Assembly: GCA_005882775.1 (NCBI GenBank)
Contig: VBDY01000129.1
Location: forward strand, 1-59,319
Reading direction: 5' to 3'
Length of the DNA stretch: 59,319 nt
From: Chloroflexota bacterium
GTDB lineage: Bacteria; Chloroflexota; Dormibacteria; CF-121
The notes beneath the pieces were generated by a model. The model was not told where the DNA came from. It saw nothing but the letters and a program-made list of their open reading frames with translations, and did no database searches. Made by a program: the position numbers and the translations under genes. This document shows, in pieces, positions 11,838-23,030 of the stretch (positions are counted from its first letter, which is position 1; every line of letters starts with the position of its first letter).

Positions 11838-12518
11838 TTAGCGCGACCGAGTCAGCCGCTCCACCAGCCGGCGCTGCTCCGGGTTGCGCAGCTGCTGGGG
11901 CCGGTCGGTCAGGAAGGCGATGAAGCTCTCCGGGTCGAGCTCGTGCCGCTTACGCCCCTGCGCCAGCTCAACCACGCCGTCTCTTACCCGAGCGGAGACC
12001 GTCTCGCCTTCCTCCTCGGCGGCAAACAGGCCGAAGTCGATTCGCCAGCGAGCCCGAGCCGCTTTAGAGCGCGCCGGTACCGGGAGCTCGATGTCGTCCG
12101 CGTGAATCGCGTACTCGCGCGCCAGGTGCCAGACCTGCAGCCGCAAGGGATACGGACCGACCGAGGTCGGGACCTTTCCCCGAACCCCGATCCGCCCCCA
12201 GGCGCGCCGGACTCGCTTCTGCCGCCGCTCCCACTCCGCCAGGACTTCGGCGGGAGTCAGATGGCGGCGCTGGCGCACGCCATGCTCGTTCCAGGCATTC
12301 AGGCTTCCGGGAAAAGCCAGCTCGCCCAGGGTTTCATCGAGGCAGGCTTCGTTGTAGAGCTCGTCGGTGCAGAGGTGGGCCACCACATCCTTCACGCTCC
12401 AGCCGGCGCAGTGGCTCTTCCGGCGCCAGCCCGCGGGATCAAGACTGTGCAGGTGGCGGCGCAGCCGCCGGATCTCCGCGTCATAGGCTGGAAACGGGTC
12501 GGCCGTCTTCGGATTCAT
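11838..12518 (-). CDS. Maleylpyruvate isomerase family (DinB-like, MDMPI) protein
   Basis: W...S.CAGWSVKDVVAHL and EYAIHADDI; start placed at ATG 12518. Confidence 0.85.
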   Translation of the reverse strand: MNPKTADPFPAYDAEIRRLRRHLHSLDPAGWRRKSHCAGWSVKDVVAHLCTDELYNEACLDETLGELAFPGSLNAWNEHGVRQRRHLTPAEVLAEWERRQKRVRRAWGRIGVRGKVPTSVGPYPLRLQVWHLAREYAIHADDIELPVPARSKAARARWRIDFGLFAAEEEGETVSARVRDGVVELAQGRKRHELDPESFIAFLTDRPQQLRNPEQRRLVERLTRSR

Positions 12519-12534
12519 CGGGTAAGATGCCCCA

Positions 12535-13344
12535 ATCGCTTCCCGGGCATCTAGCGATCCTCTCATCTTCGGCACCTACCTCGCACCCTCCTCGGTAGAG
12601 GCCTATCGCTTCGTGGCGGAACAGGTGGGCACGGTCACCGGCCGGGGCGCCAGGCTGGTGGTCGGCCGGAGCTACGATGAGCTCCTCGACAGCTCTGTCG
12701 ACGTTGCCTTCATCTGTGGCTGGCCCTATGTGCGTCTGGTCGCGCAAAACCCGGGCCGGATCGAGCTGCTGGCGGCGCCCGTCCTCAGCGGCTCGCGATA
12801 CCAGGGGAAGCCGGTCTATTTCTCCGATGTGATCGTGCGCGCCGGCAGCCCGGTCGAGCGATTCGAGGACCTTCGCGGGCACTCCTGGTCCTTCAACGAG
12901 CCCACCTCCTACTCCGGATATCTCGCCACGCTTTACCACCTGGCCAGGATGGGCGAGAGGGGGCCCTTCTTCGGTCGCGCGGTCGCCGCCGGGTCGCACC
13001 AGGAATCGATCCGCAAAGTGGCCAGTGGTGAGGTCGACGCTTCGGCCATCGACTCCCAGGTGCTCGAGCTCGAGCTCCGCCGCCACCCGGAGCTGCGACC
13101 GGAGCTCCGCGTCATTGAGTCGTTCGGGCCGGCGGCAATTCAGCCGGTGGTGGCCAGCGACCGGCTGGACGCCGGGCTGCGTCGCGACATCAAGTCGGCC
13201 ATCCGCGCCGTCTCTGGCGAGCCGCTCAGAGCCTGCCTCTTCGAGTCGTTCGTCAGCGTGGACGATGGCGCCTACGACAGAATGCGACAGGCTGAGCAAC
13301 AGGTGATGGCGGCGCGCTTGACCTTGTCTGCTAACCGACTGTGA
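12535..13344 (+). CDS. PhnD/phosphonate-type substrate-binding protein without signal peptide
   Basis: DVAFICGWPY, YFSDVIVR, NEPTSYSGY, GSHQESI, DASAIDS; frame open back to 12526, start uncertain (ATC 12535 or GTG 12613). Confidence 0.8.
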   Translation: MASRASSDPLIFGTYLAPSSVEAYRFVAEQVGTVTGRGARLVVGRSYDELLDSSVDVAFICGWPYVRLVAQNPGRIELLAAPVLSGSRYQGKPVYFSDVIVRAGSPVERFEDLRGHSWSFNEPTSYSGYLATLYHLARMGERGPFFGRAVAAGSHQESIRKVASGEVDASAIDSQVLELELRRHPELRPELRVIESFGPAAIQPVVASDRLDAGLRRDIKSAIRAVSGEPLRACLFESFVSVDDGAYDRMRQAEQQVMAARLTLSANRL

Positions 13345-13891
13345 TCTGGCCCTCCAACAGAATCTCATGGAAGGTCAGTCCGGAGACAGTCAGGACGACG
13401 GTAGCTCCCGGTCCGCCCGCAGTCACCGAGGCAGTGAACGGTGTGGTTTCCCCGGGCGGCGTGGCTCCAAGCCCGGTCACGGTCGCCGTCCCATTCATGA
13501 CTGCCGTTCGGCCTGTTACGTGCACGGAGGTTACCTTCCCGGTCACATACATAGCGTTGACCTCAAACGTCCCGCTCTCGGCACCTGTGGCTGTAGCTGG
13601 GGCCAGGGCGAGGCACTCGAAAGCTCCTCCCTGTCCGTTAGCGTGAAAGGCGAGAACGGTCGTCACCGGTAGAGGCGCGGCCCCGCCGGTGCCGCCCTCG
13701 ATGATTGTCCTGGCGCCGCCAGACACCTGATGATCACGTTCCTTCGAGGCTCCGGCACTAATTGGTCGCGACGTGGAGCCAACCAGGGCAGCTAACACCA
13801 GTGCAGCCCCCACCCAGAGCCAGAGCCGCCGCCATCCGAGACCACGGTTCAGGGGGCTGACTCGCTGAAAAATCGAACCATTGTCCACCAC
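13331..13891 (-). CDS. Hypothetical exported protein
   Basis: Basic then hydrophobic N-terminus (RRLWLWVGAALVLAALVG); Thr/Gly/Val-rich mature part; SD GAGGAGG. Confidence 0.7.
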   Translation of the reverse strand: MVDNGSIFQRVSPLNRGLGWRRLWLWVGAALVLAALVGSTSRPISAGASKERDHQVSGGARTIIEGGTGGAAPLPVTTVLAFHANGQGGAFECLALAPATATGAESGTFEVNAMYVTGKVTSVHVTGRTAVMNGTATVTGLGATPPGETTPFTASVTAGGPGATVVLTVSGLTFHEILLEGQITVG

Positions 13892-13978: not shown

Positions 13979-14626
13979 CTAGTCGTCCTCGCCGTGCCTG
14001 AGCACGTGGAAGGCTGTGCGGTTCGAGTGGTTCCCAGCGGTTGGCGGGTCGGGGTGGAAGAAGTTAACGAAGTGTCTCGTCGCGTTGAACCCCTCATCCA
14101 TAGAATGCGGGCTGCCCACCGGGAGCATGCAGCTCACGACCAGGACTCCATCGAGCCCGTCGGAGTACGCAATCCGCAGTACGGCCAGTCCTGAGCGCGC
14201 ATCTTCCCGGTTTCCGATGTCGTCATCGGCGGTCGGGGGCAGGCTTCCCGGCGCGGGATGCCAGCTGATCAGCTCGGTCACCCGGTAGGTGTTATTGGTG
14301 CCGCTGCTCGGTCCAACGTCAGTGTTGTCGGTCGACCACTTCCCTCCACCGGTCACCTGGCGGGGGTGCCCGGGCCTGAAGGTTCCACTACCCGTGAGGT
14401 TGAGGGCTGAATCATCCTCTGCCCTGGCGGTCGCCTCCCCGCCGGGTTTGATCTCGGGCGCACCACCAATAATGTTGAGCTCGATCAGATCCCACCTGAT
14501 CCTGCTGCCTCCCCGGTTGCCTTCATCCCCGTTTGCGAACGCAGCAGAAGGAACGCTCAACCCGCCGAGGACGCCCGCGGCTGCAACGCCCTTCAGGATC
14601 TGTCGCCGACTGACTTGGTCTTTCAT
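13979..14626 (-). CDS. Hypothetical Tat-exported protein
   Basis: MKDQVSRRQILKGVAAAGVLGGLSVPSAAFA twin-arginine signal with AFA cleavage site; SD-like GGGAGAAGGGG before ATG 14626. Confidence 0.8.
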   Translation of the reverse strand: MKDQVSRRQILKGVAAAGVLGGLSVPSAAFANGDEGNRGGSRIRWDLIELNIIGGAPEIKPGGEATARAEDDSALNLTGSGTFRPGHPRQVTGGGKWSTDNTDVGPSSGTNNTYRVTELISWHPAPGSLPPTADDDIGNREDARSGLAVLRIAYSDGLDGVLVVSCMLPVGSPHSMDEGFNATRHFVNFFHPDPPTAGNHSNRTAFHVLRHGEDD

Positions 14627-14691
14627 GGCCCCTTCTCCCTTGAAAGAAACGACTCTGCCAGGGGCTCGGCTCACGCCGAGACGTGCTCACC

Positions 14692-14903: not shown

Positions 14904-16454
14904 ATAACCGGGCGCGAGCCTTTACGCATCACACGGCGAACCGCGCTCAAGTGGGGCGCGCTGGCCGCAGCCTCGCCTGCGATGGGGCGCCTTCCCCTGG
15001 ATGTTTTCGCCTCCGCCCGGGCCGAGTCCCAGCCGGGCGACAGCATCGTCCTGCTCTGGAATGCTGCCATCCTGCAGGGGGTCCGTGAGTCGAAGCTCGG
15101 TCCCCCAATGGTTGCCCGGGCCCTCGCGATCGCCCACACCTGCGTCTTCGACGCTTGGGCCGCCTACGACCGCCGCGCCGTTGGTACCCGCCTGGGCAGC
15201 TCTCTGCGCAGGCCAGCTCGAGAGCACCGGCTTGCCGATCAGAGGACGGCCATCAGCTTTGCCGCATATCGGGCAGCTGTCGATCTCTTCCCGGCTTCCA
15301 GGTCAACCGTCTTCGACCCGCTCATGACCAGCCTGGGTTATGACCCGGGCAACACCACCACCGACGTCAGCACCCCGGCCGGCGTTGGGAACGTGGCCGC
15401 CAACGCCGTCCTCGACTTCCGCCACTCGGACGGCGCGAACCAGCTGGGCGACAACGTCAACGGTTTGCTCGGCGTCCCGTATTCGGACTACACAAGTTAT
15501 CAGCCGCGCAATGACCCTATGGACTTGCGGGGCAGCTTCGACTCATCGACCGTTCACGACGCCAACCTTTGGCAGCCGCTGCGCTACGTTGACACGAGCG
15601 GAAACCTGGTGACGCCGAAATTCGTTGGCGCCCAATGGCACAGGGTGACGCCGTTCGCACTCACCTCTGCCGCCCAGCTACGGTCGCCGAGCGGTCCCGT
15701 AAGATACGGCTCCGAAGCCTACGCAACCCAGGCCCGAGCCTTGCTCGAGGTCAGTGCCGGTCTGACGGACGAGCAGAAGATGATCGCCGAGTACTGGGCT
15801 GACGGGCCTCACTCCGAACTCCCCCCGGGGCACTGGGACATTTTTGCCCAGTTTGTTTCGCGCCGCGACCGGCACGGTGCCCACCAGAACGGGGTCGAAG
15901 CGGACGTCAAGCTTTTCTTCGCGCTCACGAACGCGATTTTCGATGCCAGCATCTGTTGCTGGGACAACAAGCGAGCCTTCGACAGCGTCCGACCGATCAC
16001 CGCGCTGCGCTACCTCTTTCACGGGCAACAGGTGCCTGCCTGGGCGGGGCCGAATCAGGGCGCGCGACTGATCGACGGCGGTGATTGGTTCCCGTATCAG
16101 CCGAGGACATTCCCGACACCGCCCTTCCCCGGATACAGCTCAGGACATAGCACCTTCAGCGCCGCCGGTGCCGAGATCCTGAAGCTTTTCACGCGGAGCG
16201 AGAGATTCGGGGGGTCGGTTTCCTTCCTCGCCGGGAGTTCGAAGGTCGAACCCGGGGCCGTTCCCGCGCAAGACCTGACTCTGCGCTGGGCGACCTTCCG
16301 GGAGGCGGCCGACCAGGCGGGCCTGTCCCGGCGCTATGGCGGGATCCACTTCGAGCAGGACGATCTCGACGCCCGGATCGCAGGGCGGCTCGTTGCCAGG
16401 CAAGTCTGGGCAAGAGCGCTGCGTTATTTCAAAGGAACCGGTCAAGAGGAATAG
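14904..16454 (+). CDS. Vanadium-dependent haloperoxidase family (PAP2 superfamily) protein with Tat signal
   Basis: KRAFDSVRP, PPFPGYSSGHS and SRRYGGIHFEQD motifs; in-frame ITRRTALKWGALAAA upstream of ATG 14982; ATA 14904 follows SD GGGAGGAG. Confidence 0.88.
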   Translation: MTGREPLRITRRTALKWGALAAASPAMGRLPLDVFASARAESQPGDSIVLLWNAAILQGVRESKLGPPMVARALAIAHTCVFDAWAAYDRRAVGTRLGSSLRRPAREHRLADQRTAISFAAYRAAVDLFPASRSTVFDPLMTSLGYDPGNTTTDVSTPAGVGNVAANAVLDFRHSDGANQLGDNVNGLLGVPYSDYTSYQPRNDPMDLRGSFDSSTVHDANLWQPLRYVDTSGNLVTPKFVGAQWHRVTPFALTSAAQLRSPSGPVRYGSEAYATQARALLEVSAGLTDEQKMIAEYWADGPHSELPPGHWDIFAQFVSRRDRHGAHQNGVEADVKLFFALTNAIFDASICCWDNKRAFDSVRPITALRYLFHGQQVPAWAGPNQGARLIDGGDWFPYQPRTFPTPPFPGYSSGHSTFSAAGAEILKLFTRSERFGGSVSFLAGSSKVEPGAVPAQDLTLRWATFREAADQAGLSRRYGGIHFEQDDLDARIAGRLVARQVWARALRYFKGTGQEE

Positions 16455-16627: not shown

Positions 16628-17515
16628 ATGGCCAGAGACGGACCATTTGCCGGCCATCCGCATTTTTGGGAGCGGGCGATGTCGCGCCGGCAGTTCCTGG
16701 CAGCATCGGCCGCGGCCTCGGGCGCGGCGATCACGTCTCCGTTGTGGATGCCGGCAATCGTGGAGGCATCCGGCGCCGACCCGGTGCCAATCCCGCCCAA
16801 TCCCGGCTTCTTCGGCTACAGCGTTTCCGGCGGCCCGGGTGCGGAACTCTCGTCGATCTTCAACTTCCGAGGGGTCACGGGAATGGCTACGGTCCAGGGG
16901 AAGGGAACGGGTTGGAACACCGCCACGAGAAAAAAGACCCGGTACTCCTTTGATAGTGACAACCGCTTCATGCAGGGCGAGTACATCGCTGTCAACGGCA
17001 GGCGTCACCGGGGAACCTTCGGCTTCGTCTGACTGGATATCTATGTAGAGGGTCAGGTTGATCCTCTGGCGGACGGGACGCACCAGCGGCACGACTTCGA
17101 TCCGGGGATCACCCCGGACGGCCTGTTCTGGACGTTTCGCATACCGAACAATCGGGTCAGGGTAGAAGCGGGCGACCTGGACCACGGCGCTTCGCTGAGC
17201 CTCCAGGGGCTTTCGCTTTTGGACTACGGCACGCTCGCGAATGCGCTGCTCACGCACGCGACAAAGCCGGTTCGCGCTAGCGCCTCCTTCACCTTGCGAT
17301 GGAGTGGTTCGACCGGGAACACGAGTGCCACCGACCCAGGTCCGAACCGATTCACGTACGAGGGGATCTTCACGCACGCGCGGCTCGCCTGGTCGGCCCG
17401 GGTGCCGAGCCAGCACTTCGCCTTTCAATCAGACCCGGCCAGCACGTCGTTCGAAACCTTCGCGGCGCTCGTCAACGAGCGAAACGGCAGCTTCTCCGAT
17501 ACCGACGACGATTAA
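16628..17515 (+). CDS. Tat-exported hypothetical protein with in-frame UGA at codon 135 (candidate selenoprotein, 295 aa)
   Basis: SRRQFL Tat motif; TGA 17030-17032 followed by 160 in-frame sense codons to TAA 17513-17515; SECIS-like hairpin after the UGA. Confidence 0.65.
17046..17068 (+). promoter_or_regulatory. Candidate bacterial SECIS element
   Basis: (U)AGAGGGUCA-GGU-UGAUCCUCU(G) stem-loop; 23 nt lie between the UGA and the G-starting apical loop. Confidence 0.6.
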
Positions 17516-21603: not shown

Positions 21604-22950
21604 ATGGGGAAACGCACCTTCTCAGTGGGTGGGCTGTTGGTGTCGTCGGCGATGGTCGCCGGCTTTTTCGGTAGCTCGATCACAGCCAGCGCGACCTCGA
21701 CCACCTACACGATTGGCGTGGACAACGCCACGCCGAACGGCCACGACTTCGAGTACGTCGACTTTTTCCCGCGTGGTCTCCCTCTGGATGATTCCGGAGC
21801 AAGCCCGACGCTGATCCCTGATGGGGCCACCCTGGACTTTGCCTGGAACCCAGGTTCCCCAGACGGCTTCCATACGGCGACGTTGCTGAAGGCAGGAACG
21901 GCCCCCGGCCCGAACACATGGGGCAGCGATCACCCAGTCGCGGTTCCCGACAGTGACGATGGCACTGGAAAGCTTCAGTTGAATCCGGCGATCCTGGCGC
22001 CGGGGCCCGATCCATCGTGCGGGCACGATGTGGGCAGCCCCTGCCACTACGGCGGTGGTACCGAGCTGAACTCCGGCGCGCAGCCCACAGCAACCGGAGC
22101 CCACTACTTCGTCAATATCTCCCTCGACACAAGCTCCCCGACGACGGTCCACTTTGTCTGCCTGATCCACCCGGGGATGCAGGGCGCCGTCACGGTCGTG
22201 CCAGCTAATTCTGAGGCTTCGCCGCTCACCCCGGCGCAGGTCTCGGCAGCGGCGGCGGCTCAATACACTGCCGACAATACGGAAGCATTCGCGGCTGAAA
22301 ACGCGGCAAACAGTGCGGCCGTGACGACGAGCGCCGACGGCTCGCGCACCATCACCATGACGGCGGGGACGGCAAGCCAGCACGTCGAAGTTGCCGAGAT
22401 GCTGCCCAGCCAGGTCCGGGTCAGACAGGGCGATCGCGTGAAGTGGGTCACGAAAACGAGGTCCGATATTCATACGGTCACCTTCCCCAACGGCGCCGGT
22501 TCAAATAGCGTCGACCCGATTCCGTTCGTCTGTGAGGGGACAGGCGCAGTGGACACGGCCGCCAATCCGGCGGCAGGCCCTCCCGCGTTTGGCTGTGCCT
22601 CACCCGACAAGGTCGAGAATCACCTCATCCCGGGTCCTCTGGGGCCGCGGGCGATCACCAGCACCTCGACCGTCGCCTCGTCTGGGATCCTGGCCAACGC
22701 GCCGGCACCCTTCCCGAACAACTTCACGTTCACCTTCCCGAGAACGGGAACCTTTGCCTATATGTGCCGGATCCACGACCACATGGTCGGGACGGTCGTG
22801 GTTAGTGCCGCCAGCCGGCTCGCACAGACGGGCCGTGGACCTACCTCCGGCTCAAGTCCCCTGCCGTTTGGTGCCCTTCTTGGAGGATTTGCCCTTCTGC
22901 TCGGGCTCGGACTTCTGGCAACACGGAGGCTGAGCTCCACGCGTCGCTGA
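21604..22950 (+). CDS. Exported tandem cupredoxin protein with LAQTG sorting signal
   Basis: Signal peptide; HTAT...CLIHPGM and HTVT...CRIHDHM type-1 Cu ligand sets; LAQTG + hydrophobic segment + RRLSSTRR. Confidence 0.85.
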   Translation: MGKRTFSVGGLLVSSAMVAGFFGSSITASATSTTYTIGVDNATPNGHDFEYVDFFPRGLPLDDSGASPTLIPDGATLDFAWNPGSPDGFHTATLLKAGTAPGPNTWGSDHPVAVPDSDDGTGKLQLNPAILAPGPDPSCGHDVGSPCHYGGGTELNSGAQPTATGAHYFVNISLDTSSPTTVHFVCLIHPGMQGAVTVVPANSEASPLTPAQVSAAAAAQYTADNTEAFAAENAANSAAVTTSADGSRTITMTAGTASQHVEVAEMLPSQVRVRQGDRVKWVTKTRSDIHTVTFPNGAGSNSVDPIPFVCEGTGAVDTAANPAAGPPAFGCASPDKVENHLIPGPLGPRAITSTSTVASSGILANAPAPFPNNFTFTFPRTGTFAYMCRIHDHMVGTVVVSAASRLAQTGRGPTSGSSPLPFGALLGGFALLLGLGLLATRRLSSTRR

Positions 22951-22963
22951 CTTACCGAATGGG

Positions 22964-23006
22964 AAGAGGCTTCGCCGGCGGTCCGGCGGGGCCTCTTTTC
23001 GTTTTG
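22964..23006 (+). terminator. Rho-independent terminator
   Basis: AAGAGGCTTCGCCGG-CGGT-CCGGCGGGGCCTCTT followed by TTCGTTTT. Confidence 0.75.
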
Positions 23007-23030
23007 TGGACTTCCTATCTTTCGGGAATA

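Follow-up and report, generated by a model that had tools for sequence, protein, structure and literature searches.

In the selenoprotein genes fdhF and fdnG of Escherichia coli, the UGA codon has close to it a selenocysteine insertion sequence (SECIS), a hairpin that carries G-U in its apical loop. A minimal upper hairpin is enough for binding by SelB, and the SelB protein of E. coli requires a bulged U in the upper stem. Here we describe a stem-loop at positions 17046-17068 (forward strand) of a 59,319-nucleotide (nt) stretch of Chloroflexota DNA (contig VBDY01000129.1), which is referred to below as the window. The stem-loop lies within a predicted gene at 16628-17515, immediately after an in-frame UGA that would encode selenocysteine (Sec), and it is very probably a canonical bacterial SECIS element.

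The consensus for bacterial SECIS (bSECIS) elements established by Zhang and Gladyshev, as given in PMC13188914, comprises a loop of 3-9 nt on a stem of 4-16 base pairs (bp), a G within the first two loop positions, usually G and then G or U, a spacing of 16-37 nt between UGA and loop, and a minimum free energy (MFE) of -7.5 kcal/mol or lower. The window hairpin is situated in a coding region and directly 3' of an in-frame UGA, as this model requires, and its loop of 3 nt, stem of 9-10 bp, spacing of 23 nt and energy of -11.9 kcal/mol all lie within the limits, with no tested feature deviating from the consensus. It also has in common with the E. coli fdhF and fdnG elements an apical loop with G-U near the UGA. 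The bulged U of the fdhF type is absent from its stem, which is contiguous, and this lowers only the assignment of the hairpin to the E. coli subtype. A preliminary description of the locus had set the apex in the window, CAGGUUG, beside an fdhF apex that it gave as CAGGUCUG.

The UGA and the hairpin in the window

The gene and the elements within it are located as follows, in window coordinates:

16628..17515, + strand: probable selenoprotein precursor gene, 295 residues, Sec predicted at residue 135, TGA stop at 17513-17515
16679..16741, + strand: predicted twin-arginine translocation (Tat) signal, residues 18-38 (MSRRQFLAASAAASGAAITSP), matched by TIGR01409 and Pfam TAT_signal, with a conserved GHxHFWxRA n-region before it
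17030..17032, + strand: in-frame UGA, probably read as Sec (U135), in the motif GTFGFV-U-LD; the TGA column is conserved
17033..17045, + strand: spacer between UGA and stem base, 13 nt, or 14 nt without the U-G pair, coding for L136-V140
17046..17068, + strand: very probable SECIS hairpin, with 5' arm 17046-17055, loop GGU 17056-17058 and 3' arm 17059-17068, coding for V140-L147

The frame from 16628 to 17515 is open throughout except for the TGA at 17030-17032. This codon is followed by 14 nt (CTGGATATCTATGT, 17033-17046), a 5' arm (AGAGGGTCA, 17047-17055), the loop GGT (17056-17058), a 3' arm (TGATCCTCT, 17059-17067) and a G at 17068. In RNA form, AGAGGGUCA-GGU-UGAUCCUCU, the stem consists of nine contiguous pairs including one G-U, to which U17046 and G17068 add a tenth, and the distance from UGA to loop is 23 nt. 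RNAfold returns the hairpin as the MFE structure of a 61-nt stretch; the value of -11.9 kcal/mol applies to the 23-nt hairpin folded alone, with the extra U-G pair included. The preliminary description had arrived at the same layout, which our analysis reproduces base for base (UGA, 14 nt, nine pairs with one G-U, the U-G extension, 23 nt to the loop), and the consensus-type scoring it proposed finds every constraint satisfied. An Rfam scan of the window at the gathering threshold returned a tRNA-Pro as its sole match.

The earliest in-frame start 3' of the TGA is at 17219, past a conserved HDFDPGI..GLFWT block (17090-17134), so that no translation of this block is possible without read-through of the UGA.

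Conservation, covariation and the selenocysteine machinery

The UGA is a constant feature of the family. Among 100 homologous loci read as DNA, the codon at the Sec column is TGA in 99 and TGG in one. A six-frame search of 41 related genomes yielded 10 matches in 9 genomes, every one with a single in-frame TGA. In a 401-genome sample of the phylum, 13 genomes contributed 15 matches, and one TGA was present in 14 of these matches. The column, in the context G[TA]Fx[FVE][VIF]-U-[LI]D, is shared by 19 of 20 genome loci, at identities down to ~30%. A metagenome scan, with a pattern that permitted any TGN at the Sec column, detected at least 120 stretches; of these, 80 were fetched as DNA, and every one clearly belongs to the family and carries TGA. 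Single tblastn alignments cross the TGA in homologs, and protein conservation runs on in frame on either side of it. Because the TGA is kept in 99 of 100 loci, pseudogenisation can be taken as excluded as far as sequence comparison reaches.

Protein databases give a complementary picture. A profile search of 1.84 billion representatives (clusters at 50% identity) produced 2230 matches at E <= 0.001, of which 1397 also pass 1e-10. Of the 150 best among these 2230 representatives, about 130 are halves, which either end at profile position 126-127 or start at 129-154. The break falls at position 128, the Sec column, and it is thus here that gene callers have cut the family in two. A query with a single protein returned five loci. 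The relatives with named records are Candidatus Dormiibacterota and Chloroflexi metagenome-assembled genomes.

To assess the hairpin across the family, the best ungapped hairpin within the consensus limits was scored downstream of each UGA, which was feasible for the 98 of 99 TGA loci of sufficient length. An energy of -7.5 kcal/mol or better was reached at 63 of the 98 true sites, compared with 3996 of 40075 in-frame control positions in the same loci (10.0%), and the control rate falls to 4.0% when the spacing is held to 17-24 nt. When positions within each locus are ranked at this narrow spacing, 72 of the 98 true sites fall in the top 5%. The loop sequence was evaluated separately in 93 distinct sequences with no G demanded. 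The best hairpins have a G in the first two loop positions in 89 of 93 cases (controls 56.5%), and their loops start with (N)G[G/U] in 86 of 93 (25.2% of control hairpins). The commonest loops are GUU, GGU, GUA, AGUUC, AGUU and GGUC, with GUU or GGU found in most family members. Loops start 17-26 nt after the UGA and, unlike the wide range allowed by the bSECIS consensus, the spacing is unusually uniform, at 19-20 nt in 71 of the 93 sequences.

The stem has been maintained while its sequence and coding content changed. The 93 sequences contain 64 distinct 5' arms, and the overlapped peptides are as unrelated as EGQVDP, PTSVGVD, ADAAHLH, TQAPLVPG, DPSSGFP and ESQGGSQ; a hairpin whose stem is kept over such different peptides is not a by-product of the codons. 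In an ungapped alignment of 26 sequences, which were chosen for a hairpin in one register (a choice that inflates the percentage paired, not the compensatory changes), 89.9% of the cells pair, against 29-55% in slid controls, and all eight pairs have changed on both sides. The same alignment contains 48 double-changed cells, compared with 13.1 +/- 4.4 after shuffling, and none of 500 shuffles reaches 48. A covariance model (R1) built from these 26 sequences matches 99 of the 100 loci, always at the Sec-column site, and scores the window hairpin at 30.7 bits (L021:1903-1947). When 92 distinct sequences are aligned to this model, 88.2% of the cells pair, against 32-50% in slid controls, with 215 double-changed cells against 73 in shuffled ones; this alignment is fitted to the structure, and in both alignments the sequences are related rather than independent, and the covariation figures are not probabilities.

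The source genome (2.85 Mb, 94% complete) carries the machinery for Sec incorporation. Its selA gene adjoins a full-length selB, which covers positions 2-580 of a 581-position model and thus includes the C-terminal part, and a tRNA-Sec with anticodon TCA is present. The selD gene has an in-frame TGA of its own, and two FdhA-like molybdopterin oxidoreductase genes have TGA in the classical motifs ..ARVUHG.. and ..ARIUHS... A SECIS-type hairpin follows the TGA in each of these three genes:

G000:C197:21824-22744: selD
G000:C172:34874-36538: FdhA-like gene
G000:C82:13709-14974: FdhA-like gene

Listed in the order of the two FdhA-like genes and then selD, these hairpins are GGUGGUCA-GUU-UGGCCGCC (spacing 19, -10.7 kcal/mol), GUCCCC-GGUCU-GGGGAC (spacing 18, -10.3 kcal/mol) and UGGCUCAG-GUU-CUGAGCCG (spacing 33, -10.9 kcal/mol). 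All three have G+C-rich stems of 6-8 bp with loops GUU, GGUCU and GUU, and they are of the same kind as the window hairpin, which has the longest stem of the four, the loop GGU and an unrelated host protein. Presumably, all four hairpins are served by one SelB. Across the family, each of the 16 TGA-form genomes, a tally that includes five flagged as unpublished (G249, G075, G171, G197 and G285), carries selA or tRNA-Sec.

These comparisons bear on what the preliminary description had left for checking. Its preference for Sec over pseudogenisation is supported by the constancy of the TGA column, from which one locus in 100 departs, and the stem-loop it proposed is present and covarying in homologs that keep the UGA, with compensatory changes at eight of eight pairs; no hairpin was seen in the homolog with TGG. 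The comparison within the genome that it suggested shows the FdhA-like and selD hairpins to resemble that of the window in loop, stem and spacing.

The case for a SECIS element is thus carried by the anatomy of the hairpin, by the conservation of UGA, position and loop, by covariation, by the Sec machinery and by similar hairpins in known selenoprotein genes; what we infer is that SelB binds the hairpin, that residue 135 is Sec and no other amino acid, that the protein is exported, and whatever enzymatic role it may have. In the mechanism that we envisage, a ribosome arriving at UGA135 would have the hairpin just outside its mRNA channel, with the loop 23 nt downstream. The C-terminal domain of SelB, in complex with GTP and Sec-tRNA(Sec), would bind the G-G-U loop on its stem of 9-10 bp and place the tRNA in the A site; selenocysteine would then be inserted and termination avoided. 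The product would be a Tat-exported all-β protein with Sec on a β-strand, anchored by sortase in some relatives. The hairpin would at the same time code for a variable loop after the Sec strand, an arrangement that would leave the RNA free to keep its structure.

Other readings of the UGA and the hairpin

Several observations weigh against the assignment as a SECIS element, in addition to the limits on the covariation figures given above. The 61-nt stretch is no more stable than its dinucleotide shuffles (z = -0.47), an equally good fold being reached by 58 of 200. Of the 1532 TGA trinucleotides that the window has on its two strands, 181 (11.8%) precede a consensus-type hairpin that reaches -7.5 kcal/mol, and 43 (2.8%) precede one at least as good as that of the gene (-11.9 kcal/mol or better). 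The source genome has a G+C content of 65.6%. In isolation the hairpin is therefore unremarkable, and the case for a SECIS element rests on the comparison of homologs. Within that comparison, 35 of the 98 true sites fall short of -7.5 kcal/mol, their best ungapped hairpin being weak. The selA gene is widespread, with 307 of the 401 sampled genomes of the phylum having it (77%), so that its co-occurrence with the family discriminates little, and no selA was found in one TGA-form genome, G011 (93% complete), in which tRNA-Sec is present.

The ease with which a hairpin can arise after a stop in this genome is illustrated elsewhere in the window, where the TGA stop of an open reading frame (ORF) at 21604-22950 precedes a 16-bp hairpin of -28.8 kcal/mol that is probably a terminator (hairpin region 22948-23010, + strand).

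Residues other than Sec at the critical column also count against the assignment. In 20 full-length representatives, this residue is W in eight, S in four, G in two, K or R in two, and C, L, F and E in one each. The single Cys form, P0010, is known from protein only; there is none among the 80 metagenome loci, and a scan of 185,579 species genomes with a Cys-form motif returned 67 stretches and no relative among them. Furthermore, locus L038 (genome G041) has a genuine TGG codon at 764-766 in a genome that carries selA and selB, which shows that Trp is tolerated at the Sec column in at least one diverged branch. L038 is without a comparable hairpin and has the weakest covariance-model score (9.5 bits, E = 0.95); the branch to which it belongs is marked by a PWLDANGNHNQ N-terminus, like that of P0012. 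The other W and G residues in the databases may be TGA codons that gene callers read under translation tables 4 or 25. By these counts, the family is predicted to be Sec-dominant, with Cys forms very scarce, contrary to the rule given in section 8 of PMC13188914, a review of 2026. Two further representatives, P0017 and P0118, have two domains in tandem; their Sec column is occupied by Lys or Arg, and they lack a Tat-type start.

The Trp forms lend themselves to a reading in which SelB plays no part: the hairpin would slow termination in a programmed read-through, and a near-cognate tRNA, most likely tRNA-Trp, would place Trp at residue 135. The genuine TGG of L038 in a genome with selA and selB, the frequency of W among full-length representatives and the rarity of Cys forms are in keeping with this. 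A roadblock, however, has no need of the loop signature (N)G[G/U], which corresponds to recognition by SelB; 86 of the 93 sequences have this signature, compared with 25% of control hairpins. The FdhA-like and selD genes of the source genome share the loop types and spacing of the family. In addition, all 80 metagenome loci have TGA though TGG was permitted, which implies that selection keeps TGA over a Trp codon one step away, and the W and G residues of database entries are open to the translation-table explanation just given. We therefore regard SelB-independent read-through as quite unlikely. One could also imagine that the hairpin serves some other role, such as pausing for folding or Tat targeting or mRNA stability, or that it is a by-product of the codons, with the UGA decoded in another way. 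The hairpin does sit in coding sequence, close relatives have a similar overlapped peptide (E-G-Q/P-V-D-P), and equally strong hairpins are common in the source genome. Against this stand the retention of the stem over wholly different peptides, with 64 distinct 5' arms and compensation at eight pairs, the almost fixed distance from the UGA, and the lack of a hairpin in the sole non-TGA homolog, and together these points make such a role very unlikely.

Were the TGA a true stop, the locus would be a pseudogene or a pair of genes, and the hairpin would be a chance or terminator-like structure. This reading agrees with the behaviour of gene callers, which divide the family here, and with the many stops in the window that precede hairpins. 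It is difficult to reconcile with TGA at one column in 99 of 100 loci down to ~30% identity and in-frame conservation on both sides, or with the conserved block at 17090-17134, which has no in-frame start before 17219. The predicted β domain takes strands from both halves, and no run of T is found 3' of the hairpin. This explanation appears extremely unlikely. With these alternatives considered, a canonical SECIS element, ordinary as such, remains the reading we favour for the window hairpin, and it certifies as a selenoprotein gene a locus that annotation cuts in two.

The predicted protein, its surroundings and known selenoproteins

The 295-residue protein contains no cysteine. Its N-terminus shows the features of a Tat signal, SRRQFL followed by an Ala-rich h-region, and export is predicted; TIGR01409 matches with 21.3 bits (cut-off 16.7) and Pfam TAT_signal with E = 0.0011, and the Pfam model also recognises 13 of 33 members of the family. 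Apart from these two, no model of Pfam or NCBIfam (release 20.0) matches the window protein at E up to 1. Ahead of the twin arginines, the n-region GHxHFWxRA (window 16649-16678, + strand) is conserved family-wide, which is unusual in signal peptides, and it could be a chaperone-binding or proofreading site. Three homologs have an LPxTG-like C-terminus (LPRTGG, MPSTGG and LPTTGG) with a hydrophobic stretch and a basic tail, and these endings suggest, from their sequences, sortase anchoring in some relatives:

L031:1243-2331, - strand: homolog with LPxTG-like end
L032:1330-2361, - strand: homolog with LPxTG-like end
L038:521-1357, + strand: homolog with LPxTG-like end

AlphaFold2, run with a 33-sequence alignment, predicts one all-β domain (mean predicted local distance difference test score (pLDDT) 83.5, predicted template modelling score 0.81), whose long antiparallel strands are drawn from both sides of the UGA. 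In this model, Sec135 lies in strand 126-140, and residues 141-150 are of low confidence (mean pLDDT 66). The hairpin-coded segment V140-L147 accordingly comprises the end of this strand and the start of the low-confidence loop, and it is the most length-variable region of the protein alignment. Polar residues R113, D137, H155, D156, D199, E284 and N286 are conserved.

A Foldseek search against the PDB gave no match at E <= 0.001, and a profile search of PDB sequences matched only signal-peptide-like stretches. The best VIA-align match was NspA (Z = 8.2, r.m.s.d. = 4.7, 145 residues aligned), ahead of porins, Diels-Alderases, AttH and acetoacetate decarboxylases, which had Z-scores of 6-8, the range usual in VIA-align for models without a match; for the predicted model, these hits would represent only generic closed β-barrels within the noise of the tool. 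When the Cys-form homolog P0010 served as query in a language-model search, 26 of the 30 matches were DUF1838 clusters (0.94). The DUF1838 profile PF08894 matched none of 33 family members at E up to 10, and a DUF1838 search of the source genome found no match, but its controls gave none either. Kinship with DUF1838 is only a lead.

The gene upstream of the selenoprotein gene (window 14982-16454, + strand, separated by a 173-nt gap) encodes a protein of 490 residues in which DUF6851 is combined with the second helical-bundle domain of vanadium chloroperoxidase. No vanadium-haloperoxidase-like gene was found beside the selenoprotein homologs within flanks of 1.5-3 kb. Phosphonate-type binding proteins (three loci), major facilitator superfamily transporters (three loci) and DinB/MDMPI recur only among close relatives, and the family has no conserved gene partner. 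Two kilobases upstream, on the opposite strand, window 13982-14674 (- strand) encodes a 231-residue twin-arginine protein with no known domain. A 295-codon ORF at 12481-13368 (- strand) has tblastn matches beside the homologs L024, L034 and L035; these matches lie antisense to phosphonate-type binding-protein genes, and the plus-strand ORF 12613-13344 is therefore probably the real gene in this place.

Taken together, the window gene and its homologs appear to form an undescribed, Sec-dominant family of exported β-barrel selenoproteins in soil bacteria. Full-text searches, with supplementary tables outside their scope, found no selenocysteine literature on Dormibacter or on such a family, and the searchable part of PMC13188914 contains none of the terms Chloroflex*, Dormibacter*, twin-arginine, signal peptide, Tat, LPXTG, sortase or soil. 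Predictors rely on Cys homologs and may miss families without them, according to the deep-Sep paper; this would explain how the family went unnoticed. Soil selenoproteomes are probably undercounted, with Cys-poor families systematically missed. The ~90 natural SECIS variants in fixed register moreover constitute a data set for recognition by SelB of the Chloroflexota type.

A more far-reaching possibility, which we regard as tentative and rather doubtful at present, is that the family is essentially Sec-obligate: a widespread, cell-surface, cysteine-free β-barrel family of soil Chloroflexota/Dormibacterota in which selection would retain UGA and hardly ever admit Cys, and in which Sec is replaced only in diverged branches, by the non-nucleophilic residues Trp, Ser, Gly or Leu. 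If true, this would imply a selenium-specific chemistry outside the cytoplasm, for example ligand or metal coordination or one-residue redox chemistry without a resolving thiol, in place of the common function in which Cys can substitute, and it would account for the family being overlooked by pipelines that need Cys homologs.

The catalogued prokaryotic selenoprotein families, for which the table in section 7 of PMC13188914 cites NF04xxxx accessions that NCBIfam release 20.0 holds, likewise have, as far as that part of the paper describes them, a single Sec in a conserved motif and TGA homologs in many Sec-using bacteria. The window protein differs from them in matching no NCBIfam 20.0 model. 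A Tat-exported selenoprotein is nevertheless familiar in FdnG, the catalytic subunit of formate dehydrogenase-N, which combines a twin-arginine signal with an in-frame Sec codon, as the window gene does. FdnG is a large molybdenum-bis-pyranopterin guanine dinucleotide (Mo-bisPGD)/Fe-S enzyme with many Cys-form homologs, whereas the window protein has 295 residues, is predicted to be all-β, is free of cysteine and contains no known domain. The interest of the family lies in this contrast: besides formate dehydrogenase, it would provide an extracytoplasmic selenoprotein, one that has no cysteine and in which Sec forms far outnumber Cys forms.

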